DNA of 64,000 nucleotides from Gemmatimonadota bacterium (lineage in GTDB: Bacteria; Gemmatimonadota; Gemmatimonadetes; Gemmatimonadales; GWC2-71-9): assembly GCA_036679645.1 (NCBI GenBank), contig JAZDCY010000042.1, positions 116,992 to 180,991 on the forward strand, written 5' to 3'. Position 1 is the first letter of the stretch; each line of letters starts with the position of its first letter. Made by a program: the position numbers and the translations under genes. Of the stretch, positions 53,028 through 64,000 are shown piece by piece. The notes beneath the pieces are model-generated. The model made no database searches, was not told the DNA's origin, and was given only the letters and a program-made list of their open reading frames with translations.

Positions 53028-54458
53028 ATGCTCTTCAACTCACTGGTGTTTTGCGCGTTCTTCATCGCGACTTACACCGTCTATTTCTGCCTGATGCGAC
53101 GGTATCGGGCTCAGAACGGGCTACTGCTCGCCGCGAGCTACCTCTTCTACGGTTGGTGGGACTGGCGGTTTCTCGGCCTTATTCTGCTCTCGACCTTAAT
53201 CGACTACGTCTTAGCCGGATCGATCGGTCGTCTCGACCCGGACTCAGCAACCGAACAGCGGCGGCGAAAGTTGCTCGTCACGGCATCGATCGCGACGAAT
53301 CTCGGCATCATTGGTTTCTTCAAGTACTTCAACTTCTTCGCAGATAGCGCGGTTGACGTGATGAGGGCGATCGGATTCGCACCAGATCATGTCACGCTCA
53401 ACATCATCCTACCGGTCGGAATCAGTTTCTACACGTTTCAATCGCTGAGCTATACGATCGACGTCTACCGCGGCAAGTTAAAACCGCACCCAAACTTTCT
53501 CAACTTTGCGCTCTTCGTTGCTTTCTTTCCTCAGCTCGTCGCGGGACCAATTGAGCGCGCAGCCAAGCTACTTCCTCAGTTCGCGGCCGCGAGGGTGATC
53601 ACCCCTGAGCGTGTCTGGACCGGGCTCTATCTCATCCTTTGGGGGTACTTCGAGAAGGTTGTGGTCGCCGACAACGTCGGCAGGATCGCAGACGAAGTAT
53701 TCAATAACTACGAGAAGTATCAGGGTCTCGATATCCTGATTGGCGTCTTCGCTTTTGCTCTACAGATTCTCGGGGACTTCTCCGGCTACTCAAACATCGC
53801 GCGTGGGCTGGCCCGGATTATGGGTTTTGACCTCATGGTCAACTTCCGTCTCCCGTACTTCGCGACCTCGCCGGCTGATTTCTGGCACCGTTGGCACATC
53901 TCCCTATCGACCTGGCTGCGAGACTATCTGTACATTTCACTCGGCGGCAATCGATACGGCCAGCTCATCACCTACCGAAACCTGTGCGCGACGATGCTGC
54001 TGGGCGGACTCTGGCATGGCGCTGCCTGGAACTTCGTGGCGTGGGGTGCCTACCACGGTGCGGGTCTCGCAGGTCACCGAGCTTTCTCGCAGTGGCGCGC
54101 GACCGGGGGCAAATCACGGTACGGAAGGGTTTCTGAGTGGTCAACAATCATTTTGATGTTCGCCTTCACCCTCGGTGGCTGGCTGCTATTTCGGAGCACG
54201 AGCCTCGCGCAGGTTGTCGGTATGGTTTCCTCACTCGGAGTCCGCCCGTCCAGCATGAGCTTCACCTGGACCGCCAATATCGTGTTTTACGCCTGGCCTT
54301 TGTTCGTAATCCAGCTTGTCCAGCGTCGCACGGGCGATTTGCTTGTTCTGACTCGGTTGCCAATGCCCATCACGGCTATCGTATTCGCCGGAATACTCGC
54401 TATGCTGGCGGTCTTCGGCTCGCGTGAACCGATGGAGTTCATATATTTCCAGTTTTGA
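53028..54458 (+). CDS. MBOAT O-acyltransferase (AlgI/PatA-like)
   Basis: MLFNS, LPVGISFYTFQ, FFPQLVAGPIER, DFSGYS, FWHRWHISLSTW, GGLWHGA, FIYFQF. Confidence 0.95.
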   Translation: MLFNSLVFCAFFIATYTVYFCLMRRYRAQNGLLLAASYLFYGWWDWRFLGLILLSTLIDYVLAGSIGRLDPDSATEQRRRKLLVTASIATNLGIIGFFKYFNFFADSAVDVMRAIGFAPDHVTLNIILPVGISFYTFQSLSYTIDVYRGKLKPHPNFLNFALFVAFFPQLVAGPIERAAKLLPQFAAARVITPERVWTGLYLILWGYFEKVVVADNVGRIADEVFNNYEKYQGLDILIGVFAFALQILGDFSGYSNIARGLARIMGFDLMVNFRLPYFATSPADFWHRWHISLSTWLRDYLYISLGGNRYGQLITYRNLCATMLLGGLWHGAAWNFVAWGAYHGAGLAGHRAFSQWRATGGKSRYGRVSEWSTIILMFAFTLGGWLLFRSTSLAQVVGMVSSLGVRPSSMSFTWTANIVFYAWPLFVIQLVQRRTGDLLVLTRLPMPITAIVFAGILAMLAVFGSREPMEFIYFQF

Positions 54459-54467
54459 GGTAGGCCT

Positions 54468-55544
54468 TTGGTCAACTCTGACAACGTCATTGCCGAGGTG
54501 CCACACCGCGACCAGGCCGCGATAGGGGGCATAGGCATTGACCAACCGCCGCTCGAGACGCTCCCGCGCGAGATCATTCGATCGGTCTCATGGTCGCAGG
54601 TCGCGTGGACAATTGCTGCCACACTCTTCGTCTTGGGAGCGCTCAATTTCCTCGCAGGTGCGTATCTCTCACGCTACACGTCTAACCAAGGCTACTGGCT
54701 GATCAAGCACAAATGGGAGCTTCTCGAGAGGGTAGACCACCCCATCGACTGGTTAATCATCGGGGATTCCTCTTGCAACCAGGGCATCGACACGGAGACC
54801 TGGGATCGAGCGCTGGGCGGACGTTCGCTTAATCTGTGTACCATAGGGGACTTGCTGCTCCTCAATGGTGTCTGGATGCTAGCCGCGCTGTCAGAGCGCA
54901 TCGGAAGTCCACCGAACGTTCTCGTAGTCCATGTACACGACATGTGGCACAGGCGTCCTACACCAGAGCTTCTAGGACGCATTCCAGTGCGAGGTGTGTG
55001 GGGTAAGGGAAATACGTCAGTGGTGCTCACGCTCTCGGAGACGGCTCGGGAGCTATTGTCACGGTACGCGCCGCTTGTTAGTCAGAGCTCCGCCTTGCGC
55101 AATTCGCTGCGCAACCCAAGCACGCTGTTCGAGACGAAATTCGTCCTCGGCGACAATGGCTACATGCGCGAGGTGGAGGCGAATCCGCAAACAGTCGAGC
55201 GTGACGCGGCGGCGCATCTGCGGGCATTGGAGACACAAGCCTTCAACATCTCGGCCGAGAATCGGGCCGCACTTGAGGAACTCGGGGCGCTCGCCGATGC
55301 CCACGAGGTTGATATCTATTTGACGTCAGCGCCAATTTTCGAGGGTCTCCTCGCGTCTCCGGCGTTTCGCGAACACGTGGCACCGATGCAGGCGGAATTT
55401 CGTGTGTGGGATGCCAGTAATCCGCGGCTCCATTATATTGACGAATTCCAAGCGTTCCCGAAGGAATCGATGCAGAATGCTGATCACCTGATACATGACG
55501 CGGCGCAAGTCTACACCCGCCGCCTCGCAGAAATCGTTCGATAG
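54468..55544 (+). CDS. Membrane-anchored SGNH/DltD-like protein
   Basis: N-terminal TM, LIIGDSSCNQG, SLNLC, C-terminal NADHL. Confidence 0.7.
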   Translation: MVNSDNVIAEVPHRDQAAIGGIGIDQPPLETLPREIIRSVSWSQVAWTIAATLFVLGALNFLAGAYLSRYTSNQGYWLIKHKWELLERVDHPIDWLIIGDSSCNQGIDTETWDRALGGRSLNLCTIGDLLLLNGVWMLAALSERIGSPPNVLVVHVHDMWHRRPTPELLGRIPVRGVWGKGNTSVVLTLSETARELLSRYAPLVSQSSALRNSLRNPSTLFETKFVLGDNGYMREVEANPQTVERDAAAHLRALETQAFNISAENRAALEELGALADAHEVDIYLTSAPIFEGLLASPAFREHVAPMQAEFRVWDASNPRLHYIDEFQAFPKESMQNADHLIHDAAQVYTRRLAEIVR

Positions 55545-55765
55545 CAAGTAGTGTTGGCGAATATGCTCCCATCCTCTGAACCCCTCAAAGATGGTCTTAT
55601 TCACTGTCCAAAGAAATCGGGTGCTCTATACATGTACGGTAGGAAATCACTGGAATTTCCCGCCGAAGGGAGCCTTTCGCCGAGGTACACCTCGCGGCTG
55701 CCGTTCCAGAATGTCCGACGCGTGGCGTTCCCCGCGCTACCATTTCCGACCAGCAATTAACTCGC

Positions 55766-57205
55766 GTGCTCTTCAACTCGCTACCGTTTGCCGCGTTCCT
55801 ACCTGTTGTATTCGTCCTCTACTGGGCGGCACAACGTTCCGACCTGCGCGTGCAAAACATCCTCATACTCGTCGCGAGTTACGTCTTCTACGGGTGGTGG
55901 GACTACCGTTTCCTCGCGCTCATTGTCCTCTCCTCGACCATCGACTATGTCGTTGGACGCGCCCTCTCGCGCTCCACCGGCGCCGCTCGGCGGCGCACCC
56001 TGCTGTCGTTCAGCGTCCTCACAAACCTCGGCCTGCTGGGGACGTTCAAGTATTTCAACTTCTTCGTCGACTCGCTTCGCGATCTCTTCGTTGCAGTGGG
56101 ATTACCGTCGCCTGGTTGGACTCTCGACGTAGTCCTCCCAGTAGGTATCAGCTTTTATACCTTCCAGACGCTTTCCTATACAATAGACGTGTACCGGGGA
56201 CGGCTTTCCGCAACCGACGATCCGATCGCCTTCTTCGCGTTCGTCAGCTTCTTTCCCCAACTCGTCGCCGGTCCGATCGAGCGCGCCGAACACCTCCTGC
56301 CGCAATTTCTCGCGCCGCGTCGGTTCGACTCCACCGCAGCTTCGGACGGAGCCCGCCAGATGCTCTGGGGGCTTTTCAAGAAGATCGTCGTCGCGGACAA
56401 CCTCGCGCTGTACGTACAGAACGCGTTCAGCCAGGCAGGAAGCGCTGGTCGCATCGATTTGATCGCGGGCGTCGTGTTCTTCGCGATACAGATATACTGC
56501 GACTTCTCCGGCTACTCGGACATCGCCATTGGAAGTGCGCGGCTCTTCGGATTCTCCCTACGACGTAACTTCGCGTACCCGTACTTCGCCCGGGACATCG
56601 CGGAGTTCTGGCGCCGTTGGCACATCTCGCTTTCTACGTGGTTTCGCGACTACGTCTACATCCCACTGGGCGGTAGCAAGAGCAACACACGCAGGCGTCT
56701 CATCAACGTGATGATCACATTTGGACTGAGCGGCCTCTGGCACGGCGCGAATTGGACGTTCGTCATCTGGGGACTCCTGAACGCGCTGTACTACGTCCCG
56801 CTCATGGTGAGCGGGACGCACCGAGCGAACGTCGGGCCGGTGGCGCCGGGGAAGCTCCTCCCCAGTGCTCGGGAGGTTCTGGCCATGACCATGACGTTTC
56901 TCCTCACGCTGGTAGCATGGGTGTTCTTTCGCGCCGCCTCTCTCCATGACGCAATGGACTATTTCGCATACCTCGCGAGACCAACCCCTACAATCGACGT
57001 GATTCCGCTGGCCGGGCTGCTCAGGGGAGCGCTCTTGAGCGCCGCTATCGTCCTACCGGAGTGGCTGCACCGAGAGAAAGAGCACGCCATGGCGGTGGAT
57101 GGTCTTCCGGTTGCGGGGCGCTGGGTGCTGTACCTGGCGGTGGGACTCAGCATACTCGTCTTGGGCAACTTCGGTGAAGTTCAATTCATCTACTTCCAGT
57201 TCTAG
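55766..57205 (+). CDS. MBOAT O-acyltransferase (AlgI/PatA-like)
   Basis: LPVGISFYTFQ, FFPQLVAGPIER, IYCDFSGYSD, FWRRWHISLSTW, SGLWHGANW, FIYFQF. Confidence 0.95.
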   Translation: MLFNSLPFAAFLPVVFVLYWAAQRSDLRVQNILILVASYVFYGWWDYRFLALIVLSSTIDYVVGRALSRSTGAARRRTLLSFSVLTNLGLLGTFKYFNFFVDSLRDLFVAVGLPSPGWTLDVVLPVGISFYTFQTLSYTIDVYRGRLSATDDPIAFFAFVSFFPQLVAGPIERAEHLLPQFLAPRRFDSTAASDGARQMLWGLFKKIVVADNLALYVQNAFSQAGSAGRIDLIAGVVFFAIQIYCDFSGYSDIAIGSARLFGFSLRRNFAYPYFARDIAEFWRRWHISLSTWFRDYVYIPLGGSKSNTRRRLINVMITFGLSGLWHGANWTFVIWGLLNALYYVPLMVSGTHRANVGPVAPGKLLPSAREVLAMTMTFLLTLVAWVFFRAASLHDAMDYFAYLARPTPTIDVIPLAGLLRGALLSAAIVLPEWLHREKEHAMAVDGLPVAGRWVLYLAVGLSILVLGNFGEVQFIYFQF

Positions 57206-57262
57206 CGAGCCATTGGCTCCTCGCGCTCCTTCCGATCGCCGTATGGCGGCACGCGCCAAGGC

Positions 57263-58258
57263 ATGAGCCCATGGCAATTCGGGCGGCGTGCAGTCGCCTT
57301 TGCGAGCCTTCTCGCGACGGCGTACCTAGCACTGCTGTTCGTCGTGGTCAATTCCCCGAGGATCCGGTTCCCTGAGACGAACCTCTGGACGAATCAGACC
57401 CGTAAGAGCATGCTCGGCAAGCCGACGGTGCTCATGGTTCGCGAGCTGGGTGTAGCGCGTGATCTCGATATTCTCTTCACCGGCTCCTCGCACGCCTACC
57501 GGACCTTCGACCCTCGTTTTTTTGACACCAAGAATCTCCGTACGTTCAACATGGGGACCACCGGCCAGACACCGGTGAATACGTACTTCCTAATGCGGGA
57601 CCATTTCGATCAGGTGCGCGCACCGCTGGTCGTGATCGAGACCTACCCCGACATCTTCCGACTAGATGGAACGTTTTCGTCTATCGACCTGATCCAAAAC
57701 ACAGCGTGGTCTTGGAGTACCGTGCGGATGGTCCTAGCCACGAAATCTCTGCCGGCGCTGAATGCCCTGCTATTTGACGCGCTGGACCTGCACCGCGTCC
57801 CGGTCGATCAAATTGAACCTCGGCTCGACCCAGGCGACACGTACGTCGGTCGGGGCTATGTCGAGAAGAGATCCGACGTAACCTGGGAGCAACGGGCGCC
57901 AACCCGATCGATAGCAATCAACCATACACAGCTTCGCTATTTGCGACGGACTATCGAGTGGTTGAGGCGGCGAGGAAGCCGCGTGCTCTGCATCGTCCAG
58001 CCGATCCCCGAGCCGACCCGGCGGGCAATCAAAAACTACGCGGAGGTGTCGGAGACGATTAGAGCGACTGTAACCCTCGCAGGGGCAGAGTACGTGGATT
58101 TCAACGGCATGATCGACCTGACTCCAGGTACCGATTTCTATGACTACCACCACATGCGGCAGTCTGCCGTTGAGAAGTTCCTCCCAGTGTTCTACGCCGA
58201 GCTCGTGGCACGGGGCCTGATCCCTGAGCCGCGGGAGGCGGCCGGTACGACCCCGTAA
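57263..58258 (+). CDS. Membrane-anchored SGNH/DltD-like protein
   Basis: N-terminal TM, ILFTGSSHAYRTFDP, FNMGTTGQ, C-terminal FYDYHHM (DxxH). Confidence 0.75.
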   Translation: MSPWQFGRRAVAFASLLATAYLALLFVVVNSPRIRFPETNLWTNQTRKSMLGKPTVLMVRELGVARDLDILFTGSSHAYRTFDPRFFDTKNLRTFNMGTTGQTPVNTYFLMRDHFDQVRAPLVVIETYPDIFRLDGTFSSIDLIQNTAWSWSTVRMVLATKSLPALNALLFDALDLHRVPVDQIEPRLDPGDTYVGRGYVEKRSDVTWEQRAPTRSIAINHTQLRYLRRTIEWLRRRGSRVLCIVQPIPEPTRRAIKNYAEVSETIRATVTLAGAEYVDFNGMIDLTPGTDFYDYHHMRQSAVEKFLPVFYAELVARGLIPEPREAAGTTP

Positions 58259-60042: not shown

Positions 60043-60084
60043 TTAGCGGTGCGCAGTAAGGGGTGAGCGGTAAGCGGTGAGCCT
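60043..60084. repeat. Degenerate 7-nt tandem array (TRAGCGG-like, 6 units)
   Basis: ttagcgg tgcgcag taagggg tgagcgg taagcgg tgagcct, between yraN and recA. Confidence 0.6.
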
Positions 60085-60152: not shown

Positions 60153-60554
60153 TCACCGCCAGCCTGCCTTGAACGCGTCTTCGACATGCACCACCCGCAG
60201 GTGCCCCCGGCGTATGCGCTCGATCCCAATCACGTCGAATCTGTAGACATCGTGCGGCCGGCGGTGCCGATCTATCCAGGCCTGGGCCACTCGAGCAATG
60301 TCTCGCTGCTTGCTCCGAGTGACGGCCTCCAGCGGGCTCCCGAACGTACGGCTCAGCCGAGTCTTCACCTCCACAAACGCCACGATCGTCCCGAGCCGAG
60401 CGACGAGATCGATCTCCAGCCGGCCCATCGTGAAGCGATGGTCGAGGATCTGCCAGCCGCGCCGCCGGAGAAACTCCTTGGCCAGCTCCTCGCCGTCGAC
60501 GCCCAAACGGTGACGCCGGTCCTTCCAGCTTGCAGGGTCCGTGCGGATGCGCAT
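60153..60554 (-). CDS. yraN: YraN-family (UPF0102) endonuclease-like protein
   Basis: LG..GEELA..FL, EIDLVA, FVEVKTR, P.EAVT..KQ, RFDVI. Confidence 0.92.
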   Translation of the reverse strand: MRIRTDPASWKDRRHRLGVDGEELAKEFLRRRGWQILDHRFTMGRLEIDLVARLGTIVAFVEVKTRLSRTFGSPLEAVTRSKQRDIARVAQAWIDRHRRPHDVYRFDVIGIERIRRGHLRVVHVEDAFKAGWR

Positions 60555-60635
60555 GGCGCACAATAGGCTGTGGTGTGCGGGCGAGCGTCATCGAAACAGC
60601 TCAGTTTGGTATCGCCTTCTTGCAGACGGGTCTCT

Positions 60636-60740
60636 CGTGCAGCGTGCAGCGTGCAGCGTGCAGCGTGCAGCGTGCAGCGTGCAGCGTGCAGCGTGCAGCG
60701 TGCAGCGTGCAGCGTGCAGCGTGCAGCGTGCAGCGTGCAG
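60636..60740. repeat. Perfect heptamer tandem repeat (CGTGCAG)x15
   Basis: 105 nt counted directly. Confidence 0.95.
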
Positions 60741-60758
60741 AATGTAACGGAAACACAC

Positions 60759-60891
60759 GGCGTGCCGCGCAGACCGACAGGTCCCGGAGCGCGCGTCAGC
60801 TCGCTGCCCCAGCCCGCGATAGCAAAGGACCCAACGAGCTGCAGGGCGCGGAGGGACCTGTTGGCTCAAGCGGCACGCGGACTGTCGAGCG
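60759..60891. repeat. 133-bp palindromic element, copy 1
   Basis: Matches 62542-62674 with 5 substitutions by eye; nested inverted repeats. Confidence 0.92.
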
Positions 60892-60991
60892 TGCAGAGGC
60901 CGGTCGGCGCGGGGCGCGGATGGACGGAAGTCAAGACGGGCCCGGCGTTCCAACCGCCGAGCCCGTAGACCATCTAAGGATTGGGGGGATG

Positions 60992-61723
60992 CTACGCGTT
61001 CTCGATGTCGAGCCCTTTGCGGCGCCGTCGCAATGCAGCCCCGCCAATGCCCAGGAGACCCGAGCCCAGGAGCACCATCGTGACTGGTTCCGGCACGACT
61101 GTGCATGGCGGATAGTCCCCGGCCCCGCCCGTGTCACACTTGAGCGACTGGTTCCCGTTCGGCCCGATCTGCTGTGAGTGCCAGCGTAGTTGCGTATCGC
61201 CGGTCAGCGCAAACTGGCCAGTTGTGGTGAACTTCAGCACTACCATATAGGGGTCAGCATCCGTCGAGCACGTGCTCCAGTGTGTCCCGCCAAATGCATC
61301 CATACAACCGACAATTCCGTCCGCACCCGAGGTCCCTGCGGACCCGTCGATTCTCACTCCGGCTAGGGTCTTGATGTCGTTCGACGGCGCAGACCAGAAA
61401 CTCGAGATATCCGTCCCGCCGCCAACGGCACCAGTCTGGTTGTACCATACGCCCGCGAGGCCGACGGTGCCAACGTTATTCCACACGTTGTAAAGACCGA
61501 TTGCGGTCATCGTGTGCTTGACGCCGAACGTGCCTTGGAGGTTGCGCACGCGAATGATCAGCCCATTGCCGCCGTCGACCACTTCCACCTGAACACTGGC
61601 GCAGACGCCGAGGAGCGGGCCGCCTATACAGTATGGGTTCCATCCGGACGGCAGTGCGTGCGCGGGTGTTGGTGCCGCCGCTACCGCCGCCAAGGCAACC
61701 AACCCGCCGAAGAGTTTTCTCAT
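60992..61723 (-). CDS. PEP-CTERM sorting domain protein
   Basis: Signal peptide (MRKLFGGLVALAAVAAAPTPAHA); Gly/Ser/Thr-rich body with six Cys; C-terminal VPEPVTMVLLGSGLLGIGGAALRRRRK. Confidence 0.93.
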   Translation of the reverse strand: MRKLFGGLVALAAVAAAPTPAHALPSGWNPYCIGGPLLGVCASVQVEVVDGGNGLIIRVRNLQGTFGVKHTMTAIGLYNVWNNVGTVGLAGVWYNQTGAVGGGTDISSFWSAPSNDIKTLAGVRIDGSAGTSGADGIVGCMDAFGGTHWSTCSTDADPYMVVLKFTTTGQFALTGDTQLRWHSQQIGPNGNQSLKCDTGGAGDYPPCTVVPEPVTMVLLGSGLLGIGGAALRRRRKGLDIENA

Positions 61724-62238
61724 GAACCTTCCCCTTTACCACCCCGAAGATGTCTTATCGCCGCGTACGCGCCGACCGCGGACGCGACCGTGAAGGTCAC
61801 TCCCAGCAGCGATGTCTTCACAATGGCCTTTTTCACACCAAGCGCGGCAGGCCCCTCGACGGAGCCCAACGCCATCGGGACGTCGGTCAGGAACAGCAAG
61901 TACGCCGCTGCGAGAAACACCGACCACATCCCGAGCACTACCGCAACCGCAACCAATAAACGCCGACTACCCAACGCCAACCCCGCCCCGAGCAGCCCCG
62001 CAAACCCGATCGCGATCAGCGCCAGCCCACTGAAACTCGCCGCGATCGTCCCAAACTCCCATTCCGGCGTCCCAAGGTGCATGGGGTACCAGACCAGGGC
62101 AAAGTCCCCCACTCCCACAACCAGCAGTACGAACCCAATCCACCCGATCCAACGCCACCCCGTTTCGGGGTCTTCCGCTAGCGGCCGAACTCGCTTCCGA
62201 CCGGCCTTCTCCTCAACCAGGACCTTCCGCTCAGCCAT
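61720..62238 (-). CDS. Four-TM membrane protein of unknown function
   Basis: Four hydrophobic segments; WYPMHLGTPEWEFGT loop; G-rich RBS; ATGA overlap with the PEP-CTERM gene. Confidence 0.8.
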   Translation of the reverse strand: MAERKVLVEEKAGRKRVRPLAEDPETGWRWIGWIGFVLLVVGVGDFALVWYPMHLGTPEWEFGTIAASFSGLALIAIGFAGLLGAGLALGSRRLLVAVAVVLGMWSVFLAAAYLLFLTDVPMALGSVEGPAALGVKKAIVKTSLLGVTFTVASAVGAYAAIRHLRGGKGEGS

Positions 62239-62466
62239 CGTCCCCCCTCGAACACACACTCATTCCCAGCTCCCAACCACCGCGAGACGGAGGGACGGTC
62301 CTTGGCAAAGGTGAGCTATTGCACATTTCGGGCCCTCGAGCGCTCAGCGCAGACACGCGCAAGTATTTTGTTCATAATGACTTACTGAGATGGGGCGAGC
62401 ATCCAACACCATCCGCCCACGCCGAATCAGCCCAACACATATGGCTCGCTTCCAACATGAGGACAC

Positions 62467-62522
62467 CGTGCAGCGTGCAGCGTGTGACGCGCAGCGTGCA
62501 GGGCGCAGAGTGCAGGGTGTAC
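62467..62522. repeat. Degenerate CGTGCAG array (about 8 units)
   Basis: cgtgcag cgtgcag cgtgtga cgcgcag cgtgcag ggcgcag agtgcag ggtgtac. Confidence 0.85.
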
Positions 62523-62541
62523 GGTACGGCGGAAGTCGACG

Positions 62542-62674
62542 GGCGTGGCGCGCAGACCGACAGGTCCCGGAGCGCGCGTCAGCTCGCTGCCCCAGCCCGC
62601 GATAGCAAAGTACCCCACGAGCTGCAGCGCGCGGAGGGACCTGTTGGCTTAAGCGGCACGCGGACTGTCGAGCG
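62542..62674. repeat. 133-bp palindromic element, copy 2
   Basis: Direct repeat of 60759-60891; ends 6 nt from the ftsK stop codon. Confidence 0.92.
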
Positions 62675-62680
62675 CACGTC

Positions 62681-64000
62681 TCACTTACTGTATTCGTCCA
62701 ACTGCTCCGCACCAATCAGCACCTCCCGAGGCTTCGACCCATCCGGCGGCCCTAGAATACCCACCGCCTCTAATTGGTCGATAATCCGCGCCGCACGCCC
62801 ATACCCTATCCTGAGCTTCCGCTGCAACAACGATGTCGAGCCGAGCTGATGCTGAAGACACGTCTCCGCAGCTTCGCGGAACAGCGCATCGCGATCACCC
62901 ACTTCAACAGCCGCGCCGTCCGCGCCCTCGCTCGCCTCGATCGCCTCGATCACCTCGAGGATGTCCGATTCGCGAGTCTCGGGTGCCACAAGCCCGCGCT
63001 GTTCCAACGCTTCATCGCGTAGCTTGCGTTGGTCGGCATACCAACCGGTGAGATCCTCGGTCTCTTCCGTCGAGATGAACGCCCCCTGCAAGCGCGTTGG
63101 CTCGCTCTTGCCGGGCGGCAAAAAGAGCATGTCCCCGTTCCCCAGTAGCGCCTCGGCGCCGTTCTGATCGAGGATCGTCCGGCTGTCCACCTTGGACGCC
63201 ACTCGGAACGCAATCCGGCTCGGGAAGTTGGCCTTGATGAGACCCGTGATCACGTTCACCGACGGACGCTGCGTCGCGAGCACGAGGTGAATGCCGGTCG
63301 CGCGCGCCTTCTGGGCGAGAAGTGCCAACGGTTTCTCGACCTCGCTCTGGACCGTCATCATGAGATCGGCCAGCTCGTCCACGATCACCACGATCTGCGC
63401 CAGCAGTCCCTCCTCGTAGGGAAGCGGAAGTTCTTCTTGCGCGTCGTCCGTTCCGGGACGTCGTTTGGGTGTCGGGAGAACGAGTTCCTTTCCGTCCGTA
63501 ACCTTGCGGTTGAGGTCTTCGATGTTGCGCGCGCCATTGGCGTTGAAAAGCCCGTAGCGCCGCTCCATCTCGTGGACCGCCCACTTGAGCGCCTGTGCCG
63601 CCTCTTTGTTGTTGGTTACTACCGGATGCCGCAGGTGCGGCAATTCGTTGTAGCCCGACAGCTCGACCATCTTGGGATCGATCATCAGCATGCGCAGCTC
63701 GACCGGCGTGTACCGGTAGATCAGGCTCGTGATGATCGTGTTGATGCACACCGACTTGCCCGAACCCGTGGCACCTGCAATCAGCAGGTGCGGCATCTTC
63801 GCGAGATCGGCTATCACCGGCCGGCCCTCGAGATCTCGACCCAGAGCGATCGGCAGCGTCCCGCGCGTCGTCTCCCACTCGGGCGCCTCGAACAACTCCC
63901 GTAACTGGACGATCCGGGCAACGGGATTCGGTACCTCGACACCCACAGCGGCTTTCCCGGGAATCGGCGCCACTATGCGAATGGACTGCGCCCGCATGGC
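62681..64000 (-). CDS. ftsK: DNA translocase FtsK, C-terminal motor and gamma domains (5' end outside window)
   Basis: PHLLIAGATGSGKS, IDPKMVEL, VDELADLMM, ATQRPSV, GAEALLGNGDMLF, STSLLQRKLRIGYGRAARIID. Confidence 0.97.
   Translation of the reverse strand, partial: AMRAQSIRIVAPIPGKAAVGVEVPNPVARIVQLRELFEAPEWETTRGTLPIALGRDLEGRPVIADLAKMPHLLIAGATGSGKSVCINTIITSLIYRYTPVELRMLMIDPKMVELSGYNELPHLRHPVVTNNKEAAQALKWAVHEMERRYGLFNANGARNIEDLNRKVTDGKELVLPTPKRRPGTDDAQEELPLPYEEGLLAQIVVIVDELADLMMTVQSEVEKPLALLAQKARATGIHLVLATQRPSVNVITGLIKANFPSRIAFRVASKVDSRTILDQNGAEALLGNGDMLFLPPGKSEPTRLQGAFISTEETEDLTGWYADQRKLRDEALEQRGLVAPETRESDILEVIEAIEASEGADGAAVEVGDRDALFREAAETCLQHQLGSTSLLQRKLRIGYGRAARIIDQLEAVGILGPPDGSKPREVLIGAEQLDEYSK

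Follow-up and report, generated by a model that had tools for sequence, protein, structure and literature searches.

What are the two near-identical hairpins that bracket a PEP-CTERM gene pair between ftsK and yraN in this Gemmatimonadota genome: a mobile element, a structured RNA or a simple duplication? The hairpins, here called E1 and E2, lie near one end of the 64,000-nucleotide contig stretch under analysis (the window), each with an array of CGTGCAG-type heptamers on its 5' side (Table 1). Our analysis places them in a real and apparently undescribed hairpin family that is restricted to one Gemmatimonadota family, and we are inclined, with moderate confidence, to read this family as non-autonomous mobile DNA.

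The initial annotation had described two 133-bp units with five substitutions between them, and this was borne out: the units at 60759-60891 and 62542-62674 are 96.2% identical and spaced by 1783 bp, the identity extending to 60891 on the E1 side. Because a third copy in the genome matches the first 120 bp only, the last 13 bp of the unit are flank common to E1 and E2. Both units form a long interrupted hairpin with the nested stems as annotated, the GCGCGC stem of E1 having one G-G mismatch, and the + strand folds better (RNA folding z-scores: + strand, -3.3 and -4.0; - strand, -3.0 and -0.9). Both also lie 3' of minus-strand genes, as had been noted, and a U-tract is absent from the main hairpin; nearby, the - strand has a single weak terminator-like site (60771-60754; four sites in the region vs 1.2 in shuffles). 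The names ftsK, accC, comB, recA, alaS and rarA are those we take from the translations, not database calls. Genomes, contigs and loci carry our own numbers (G, C and L).

Table 1 Coordinates of the hairpins, arrays and genes around the bracketed pair (window positions)
Feature	Position	Strand	Remarks
yraN (UPF0102)	60153..60563	-	directly after ftsK in three relatives
Array 1, perfect (CGTGCAG)15	60636..60740	+	15.0 units, 5' of E1
Spacer between array 1 and E1	60741..60758	+	18 nt; sequence unlike the E2/E3 spacer
Hairpin copy E1	60759..60880	+	83.2 bits with covariance model R1, E1 itself being in the training set
Family core of E1	60786..60853	+	GGA foot, GCGCGC stem, GT/CA loop, CAG/CTG stem, variable loop, GGAG foot
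Secreted protein, 243 aa, C-terminal PEP-CTERM motif	60992..61723	-	PF07589, E=7e-4, 20.0 bits (cut-off 20.7)
Hydrophobic protein, 172 aa, likely membrane	61720..62238	-	no Pfam match; conserved upstream partner of the PEP-CTERM gene
Array 2, degenerate CGTGCAG-type	62467..62519	+	7.6 units, 71% matches, 5' of E2
Hairpin copy E2	62542..62663	+	core 62569-62636; 17 bp from the ftsK stop codon
ftsK, 3' part	62681..64000	-	continues on contig C99; named from sequence features

Core architecture and covariation

Weak BLAST matches in relatives revealed a common inner core, which was turned into a gapped search pattern, and 35 aligned copies, most of them found by a pattern that fixes the core bases, were used to build a covariance model (R1). 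The left half of the consensus runs from a variable outer stem through GNA, GCGCGC, GT, YRG, T, GA and GC into a loop that often holds TTG-GGATC; the right half returns through GC, GA, A, CYR, CA, GCGCGC and GGA to the outer stem. The GT was invariant (86/86) and the two CA bases were present in 85 and 82 of 86 copies, the 35 training copies being among the 86. Across 168 copies the core loop measured 38-47 nt in 160, and the feet were GNA in 141 on each side, the left foot being GGA in 73, GCA in 36, GTA in 18 and GAA in 14 and the right foot carrying its GNA on the same strand. The outer stems are freely variable, and a second outer GNA loop, found in 43 of 163 copies (shuffle mean 25, maximum 40), is a subfamily-level feature only. 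According to the available text of PMC13037366, GNA motifs closed by a sheared G-A pair are unusually stable in single-stranded DNA, a property that may matter for this element.

The stems covary. Paired cells made up 93.0%, 93.7% and 92.4% in three model-fitted alignments, compared with 17-57% in slid controls, and double changes were seen at 14, 15 and 13 of the 17 pairs; an alignment not fitted to the structure still gave double changes at 11 of 17. On the + strand, G.T pairs outnumbered A.C pairs (83 vs 33). In one copy (L189:685-814) the left core arm is similar to the coding sequence of the tyrosine-recombinase motif G-x-R-V-S-E, a weak match (E=2.1) that is probably coincidence.

Distribution and genomic behaviour of the copies

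In the species collection the gapped pattern matched 30 loci, of which 26 bear a Gemmatimonadota title, one belongs to an Acidobacteria bin and three were unscored by the later model; metagenomes gave 18 loci. Viral contigs yielded no match to the pattern and phage records none to the element, and the single match in plasmid records was to the heptamer array only. Altogether 191 distinct homologues were gathered, from 30 of 78 genera. The R1 model detected the element in 17 of 60 genomes of the same Gemmatimonadota family and in none of 40 from other families; the pattern search, which may overlook diverged forms of the hairpin, gave 78 positive genomes out of 400 in the family (reversed-pattern control, 0-2 per genome) and, across the phylum, 14 of 125 own-family genomes vs 0 of 175 others. 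Copy number within the family is patchy, from 0 to 59, six genomes picked for high copy number holding 59, 44, 31, 20, 17 and 13 copies. The only well-scoring copy titled outside the phylum (L061:2829-2952, on a 4.5-kb contig of an Acidobacteria bin) could reflect transfer or misbinning.

With so many copies, the element is not just the two-copy local duplication that the initial annotation had allowed for. Nor did the match to a known RNA family occur that the annotation had also considered: at the Rfam gathering score there was no match in the window (one chance match fell on the array, E=7.6) and, at 14 homologous loci, nothing over any element; the ends of insertion sequences (IS) were not searched as a library. 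The open-access literature, leaving aside subscription journals and supplements (e.g. the repeat tables of PMC3733652 and PMC11893778), held no description of the hairpin family, and 'Gemmatimon' was absent from the main text, supplements excluded, of the checked papers on repetitive extragenic palindromes (REPs). The proposal of an unnamed element resembling REPs or miniature inverted-repeat transposable elements (MITEs) is supported by the many copies, the covariation and the lack of an Rfam match.

Four hairpin copies were found in the source genome by the covariance model: E1, E2 and, outside the window, E3 and a diverged copy on contig C58. All four are oriented alike relative to the skew. 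E3 lies on contig C99 between accC and comB, with 95-97.5% identity over 120 bp. Contigs C99 and C38 share a 114-bp exact overlap inside ftsK, and therefore E1, E2 and E3 stand in a single gene run and in one orientation, with spacings of 3253 and 1783 bp. E2 and E3 share array, spacer and hairpin (96% identity over ~198 bp), and behind E3 its right arm is repeated four times in tandem, in copies of 45-48 bp (G000:C99:90194-90397 = L001:12195-12398); similar right-arm repeats occur in G027 (L047) and G132 (L244). Since accC directly adjoins comB in G001, G002 and G027, whereas here 418 bp with array, hairpin and the four arm repeats lie between them, E3 with its array is an insertion.

Across genomes, copies are intergenic with few exceptions. 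Automatic open reading frame (ORF) calls divided the gene orientations around them into 28, 19, 16 and 12, plus nine undetermined, and the neighbouring genes were unrelated (ORFs scanned: 51 of 79 and 57 of 85, plus chosen sets of 51 and 25). The 14 copies with definable ends had flanking direct repeats of 0-3 bp and no target duplication. Copies tend to be grouped: in G148, 11 of those listed lie on two contigs. Back-to-back inverted pairs also occur. One long operon carries copies at differing gaps in G001, G027, G036, G188 and G284, and in G284 the element stands directly past ftsK, oriented as E2. At L182:2471-2596 a copy is read in frame as part of the N-terminus encoded by a cytochrome c gene; the + strand frame of the element is open in many copies.

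Direct-repeat bracketing of genes was also seen elsewhere, as an element-Uma2-element-Uma2-element series in G148 and around an MNT-HEPN pair in G215. At L336:9765-12561 (G148:C319), tandem heptamer and hairpin units separate two Uma2 paralogues and a small ORF, and the contig ends near rarA. The genes bracketed by inverted pairs ~1 kb apart, a metallo-hydrolase (presumably RNase Z) and a coiled-coil gene, do not encode a mobile enzyme. At L231:1520-2790 (G259:C18), a coiled-coil gene between inverted elements is accompanied by an ~85-bp duplicate of the 3' end of the neighbouring gene, and G284 and L056 have related coiled-coil genes close to elements. Orphan half-sites were considered as long terminal repeats around a gene, and those fetched proved to be diverged whole copies, chance matches and one decayed half.

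The initial annotation had treated heptamer array and hairpin as one composite element. They are separate families, yet the 5' side of the hairpin is enriched in arrays, and in E2 and E3 the two are shared as a block, array 2 being nearly identical to the array at E3. The annotated spacer of 18-19 nt held for E1, whereas that of E2 is 22 nt by Tandem Repeats Finder (TRF) limits. Of 185 copies, 34 had an array of 7-9-mers no more than 120 bp away on the 5' side (33 of these G-rich), compared with 11 of 187 on the 3' side; the background was 29 of 2643 random windows and 90 of 2217 post-stop windows of the source genome. Kin and shared loci inflate these counts, which still cover at least eight lineages with different units. 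Genome-wide, period-7 arrays gave 131 TRF rows with many unit types, often as inverted pairs. Heptamer simple-sequence repeats are a known class in Xanthomonas and Nostoc (Rehm et al. 2015, PMC4692102). The CGTGCAG arrays are like the repeats of that study in being intergenic, near gene ends, variable in length and of many unit types per genome, and differ in standing mostly on one side of an unrelated hairpin with which they can be co-copied. Two further observations concern arrays of the source genome: genes for four-helix-bundle proteins (23S rRNA IVP family) are bracketed by inverted heptamer arrays at G000:C44:7388-8098 and C7:93167-93636, and a short degenerate AGCGGTG array lies between yraN and recA (window 60045-60082).

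Known hairpin systems, candidate enzymes and rival explanations

By feature tests, the element works like a REPIN and probably lies outside the GTAG-REP/RAYT, CGTC-REP/Ssn and attC systems. Classical MITEs are short, non-coding, multi-copy and bounded by inverted repeats, and the element shares these properties; it differs in that the inner core is conserved rather than the termini, and in the missing target-site duplication. With REPINs as outlined in the available text of Bertels and Rainey 2011 (PMC3116915) and Quentin et al. 2018 (PMC6006769), it shares two conserved arms at a fixed distance, a variable spacer and compensatory changes, as well as extragenic location, tandem clusters that include flanks and patchy copy number. 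In contrast to the REPIN/RAYT system as far as PMC6006769 describes it, the arms do not have the structure of REP palindromes, with GT(A/G)G as the 5' tag, and carry GNA feet on the same strand; by eye, they do not form hairpins of their own. A further difference is that no RAYT was found beside the element and that the four richest genomes have no Y1 match.

The initial annotation had proposed a search for a RAYT/IS200-like or IS110 enzyme flanked by the element. No RAYT/IS200-like enzyme was found at the Y1 loci examined: the element was absent from all four in the source genome, whose Y1 genes have other flanks or none, and from all 30 fetched of 32 further matches. IS200-like Y1 genes at G000:C50:752-1093, C92:24893-25228 and C53:97289-97624 have their own palindromic flanks, unrelated to the hairpin. 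In a set of three Y1 loci, one adjoins a copy but carries palindromes of its own. Copy-rich G188, G259, G284 and G142 (86-97% complete) gave no Y1 match, and with the richest genomes lacking a match and the Y1 loci lacking the element, Y1 transposase was rejected as the partner. No IS110 DEDD transposase was present among the 184 neighbours scanned, though no IS110 family search was made. The element was likewise absent from short GIY-YIG loci (three read and five model-scanned in all, a small sample) and from seven integrase or IntI-like loci, and ten IS91 Y2 loci of three genomes gave no significant element match. The source genome holds split integron-type integrases and an IS91-like tyrosine recombinase + Y2 unit (G000:C86:51824-52734, C33:1464-2106 and C51:2139-3985), and G081 has eight Y2 matches, some ending beside attC-like hairpins.

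Could the hairpin instead be an attC-like site for another recombinase, its element-gene-element units, including the PEP-CTERM pair, being excisable cassettes? The attC sites of integrons are long imperfect hairpins with fixed unpaired bases, strand asymmetry and core sites; the element resembles them in the first three respects, in its fixed inner length and in sometimes forming direct repeats around small accessory genes. Same-orientation arrays of genes and elements were, however, found in G148 and G215 only, and most copies stand alone between housekeeping genes, mostly inside operons, in both orientations and also as back-to-back inverted pairs. The RYYYAAC...GTTRRRY brackets, i.e. the AAC/GTT core, occurred in 0 of 168 copies. 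Integron-type integrases are present in three of five genomes tested, those of the source genome being split, but the integrase loci tested lacked the element, and an attC scan of the source genome gave unconvincing matches only. Uma2 is the commonest small neighbour, with an element within 1.5 kb of 6 of 30 Uma2 loci vs ~0.5 by rough estimate, four of the six having been known beforehand. Against a cassette role, element-adjacent Uma2 proteins are scattered on the tree (9 changes among 10 rows, a value at least as low being reached in 335 of 500 shuffles), and G081 has 16 element copies and no Uma2 match. Being enriched near elements yet unclustered on the tree, Uma2 appears as a fellow traveller and a weak candidate. 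We judge an attC-like site unlikely.

A somewhat different enzyme is implied if the element is a long, diverged member of the CGTC-REP/SRM repeats, cut by an Ssn-type GIY-YIG nuclease. Tandem GA mismatches in the inner stem are a feature of such repeats and also of the element, although in the CGTC repeats seen here the feature shows only loosely. The available text of PMC3733652 describes a CGTC tag and a CCA tail around an inner stem, in intergenic repeats free in orientation; the element likewise is intergenic and orientation-free. Its inner foot reads CGTC in 109 and CGTT in 55 of 168 copies and its tail GCA in 138, ACA in 20, TCA in 6 and CCA in only 4, the GT and CA having been required by the search pattern itself. 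SsnA tolerates loop removal and extensions, as reported in the available part of PMC11893778. The same source, within that part, gives SRM-NTS sites an 8-9 bp stem starting with AT and a 4-5 nt loop, whereas the element stems start with AG (91) or GG (76), its loop is ~40 nt and outer stems are added; the degenerate SRM pattern matched 0 of 168 copies. No GIY-YIG gene flanked by the element was seen among the loci examined, the short GIY-YIG genes read in the source genome and in G081 being without such flanks. Canonical CGTC-tagged hairpins do lie upstream of a small GIY-YIG gene in G007 (L205:1450-2070, G007:C92), so an Ssn-type system is also present in the family, separate from the element. 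Membership in the CGTC class is accordingly quite improbable.

An RNA-level role, as a domesticated stabiliser, processing site or riboregulator spread by local duplication, accords with the G.U-compatible bias, the tandem GA and 3x3 purine loops, the location just past stop codons, the sites common to kin and the recurrence in the long operon of G001, G027, G036, G188 and G284. The structured RNA that the initial annotation had offered as an alternative is nevertheless not favoured, because copies face both ways and adjoin unrelated genes; moreover, the favoured strand is antisense to the operon in all three linked copies here, copy number varies from 0 to 59 within the family, no Rfam match was found and one copy is inserted in frame in a coding region (L182). 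We regard this explanation as rather unlikely. Mere local duplication of a chance hairpin without a special role is very improbable: local copying did produce the three near-identical copies, as all lie within about 5 kb, but as an account of the family it is refuted by the 191 covarying homologues.

Several observations weigh against the mobile-DNA reading that we prefer. No partner enzyme was found, none of the 184 neighbouring ORFs scanned (chosen subsets) encodes a transposase, and the G061 Y1 gene that lies ~60 bp from a copy has its own palindromes. No movement of the element was observed, and sites common to related genomes (L054, L059 and L060) fit inheritance and a host role. A replication-strand bias was not found at the locus level (51/89, p=0.2); at the gene level p was 0.04, and in G061 the contigs have gaps and the skew is mosaic. 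The alignments A2, A4 and A5 were fitted to the structure, and the invariance of the core is partly built in, because the model and the first alignment came from a core-fixing pattern. For the PEP-CTERM pair, 29 loci with homologous genes in other genomes included one with an element within 1.5 kb, plus G148, and the membrane gene had no match in G001 and G002, of the same genus.

If the family is indeed non-autonomous mobile DNA, an enzyme would recognise it as a single-stranded hairpin, and on the + strand its putative binding site would consist of the fixed parts of the core (GNA/GGA foot, GCGCGC stem, GT/CA loop). New insertions would mostly be close to existing copies, frequently right downstream of G-rich short-repeat arrays that may be taken along in the copying. 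Recombination between two direct-repeat copies would then allow the genes that they enclose to be moved or duplicated.

The PEP-CTERM pair and implications

The pair between E1 and E2 consists of the membrane-protein gene and, as its second gene, the 243-aa PEP-CTERM gene, whose homologue in G148 passes the PF07589 cut-off. It is single-copy in the source genome. Homologues of the membrane gene were found in 61 of 250 family genomes, and a PEP-CTERM homologue follows it in G134, G012, G220, G181, G132 and G148, near an exopolysaccharide cluster; in G134 and G015 the pair lies ~9-14 kb past recX. An element stands 300 bp upstream of the pair in G148, in the same orientation, and downstream of it in G132. 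The gap between ftsK and yraN measures ~90-125 bp in G002, G003 and G015 and ~440 bp in G001. The idea of the initial annotation that the pair is a cassette is plausible on sequence grounds, because ftsK and yraN lie 90-125 bp apart in three relatives. The simplest reading is that the pair would have entered an ftsK gap already occupied by an element, via recombination between copies, and it is likely to have reached the ftsK-yraN gap as a passenger of such an event. On the assembled contigs of X1, probably the source sample, the cassette had a depth of 97.6 vs 77-95 for the ftsK pieces; such contigs cannot show a junction inside a repeat.

At the border of a large exopolysaccharide cluster elsewhere in the window (53028-58258), two tandem pairs of an MBOAT-like acyltransferase and a partner gene converge on recX. 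These pairs were read from translations, and the partner proteins have no Pfam match.

The known partner enzymes of such repeats are RAYT for GTAG-REPs and Ssn for CGTC/SRM repeats. Because the present family fits neither class and its richest genomes lack a Y1 match, it is a place to seek another hairpin-acting enzyme, and its one-sided link to 7-9-mer arrays offers a testable handle on arrays that are poorly understood. Should it turn out to be merely another passive REP-like family, its value would be mainly descriptive. A bolder proposal, which we put forward as a doubtful one, is that the element represents a new class of single-stranded-DNA hairpin site, used by none of RAYT, Ssn and integron integrase, that inserts strand-specifically beside short tandem-repeat arrays and, when paired in direct repeat, shuffles small genes as cassettes in core operons. 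If so, the shuffled genes would comprise Uma2 nucleases, toxin-antitoxin pairs and the PEP-CTERM surface module, the heptamer arrays would be tied to the mechanism of a mobile element, and the family would point to a novel recombinase or nuclease. Locally, the element may provide a route for rearranging surface and exopolysaccharide genes in this uncultured lineage.

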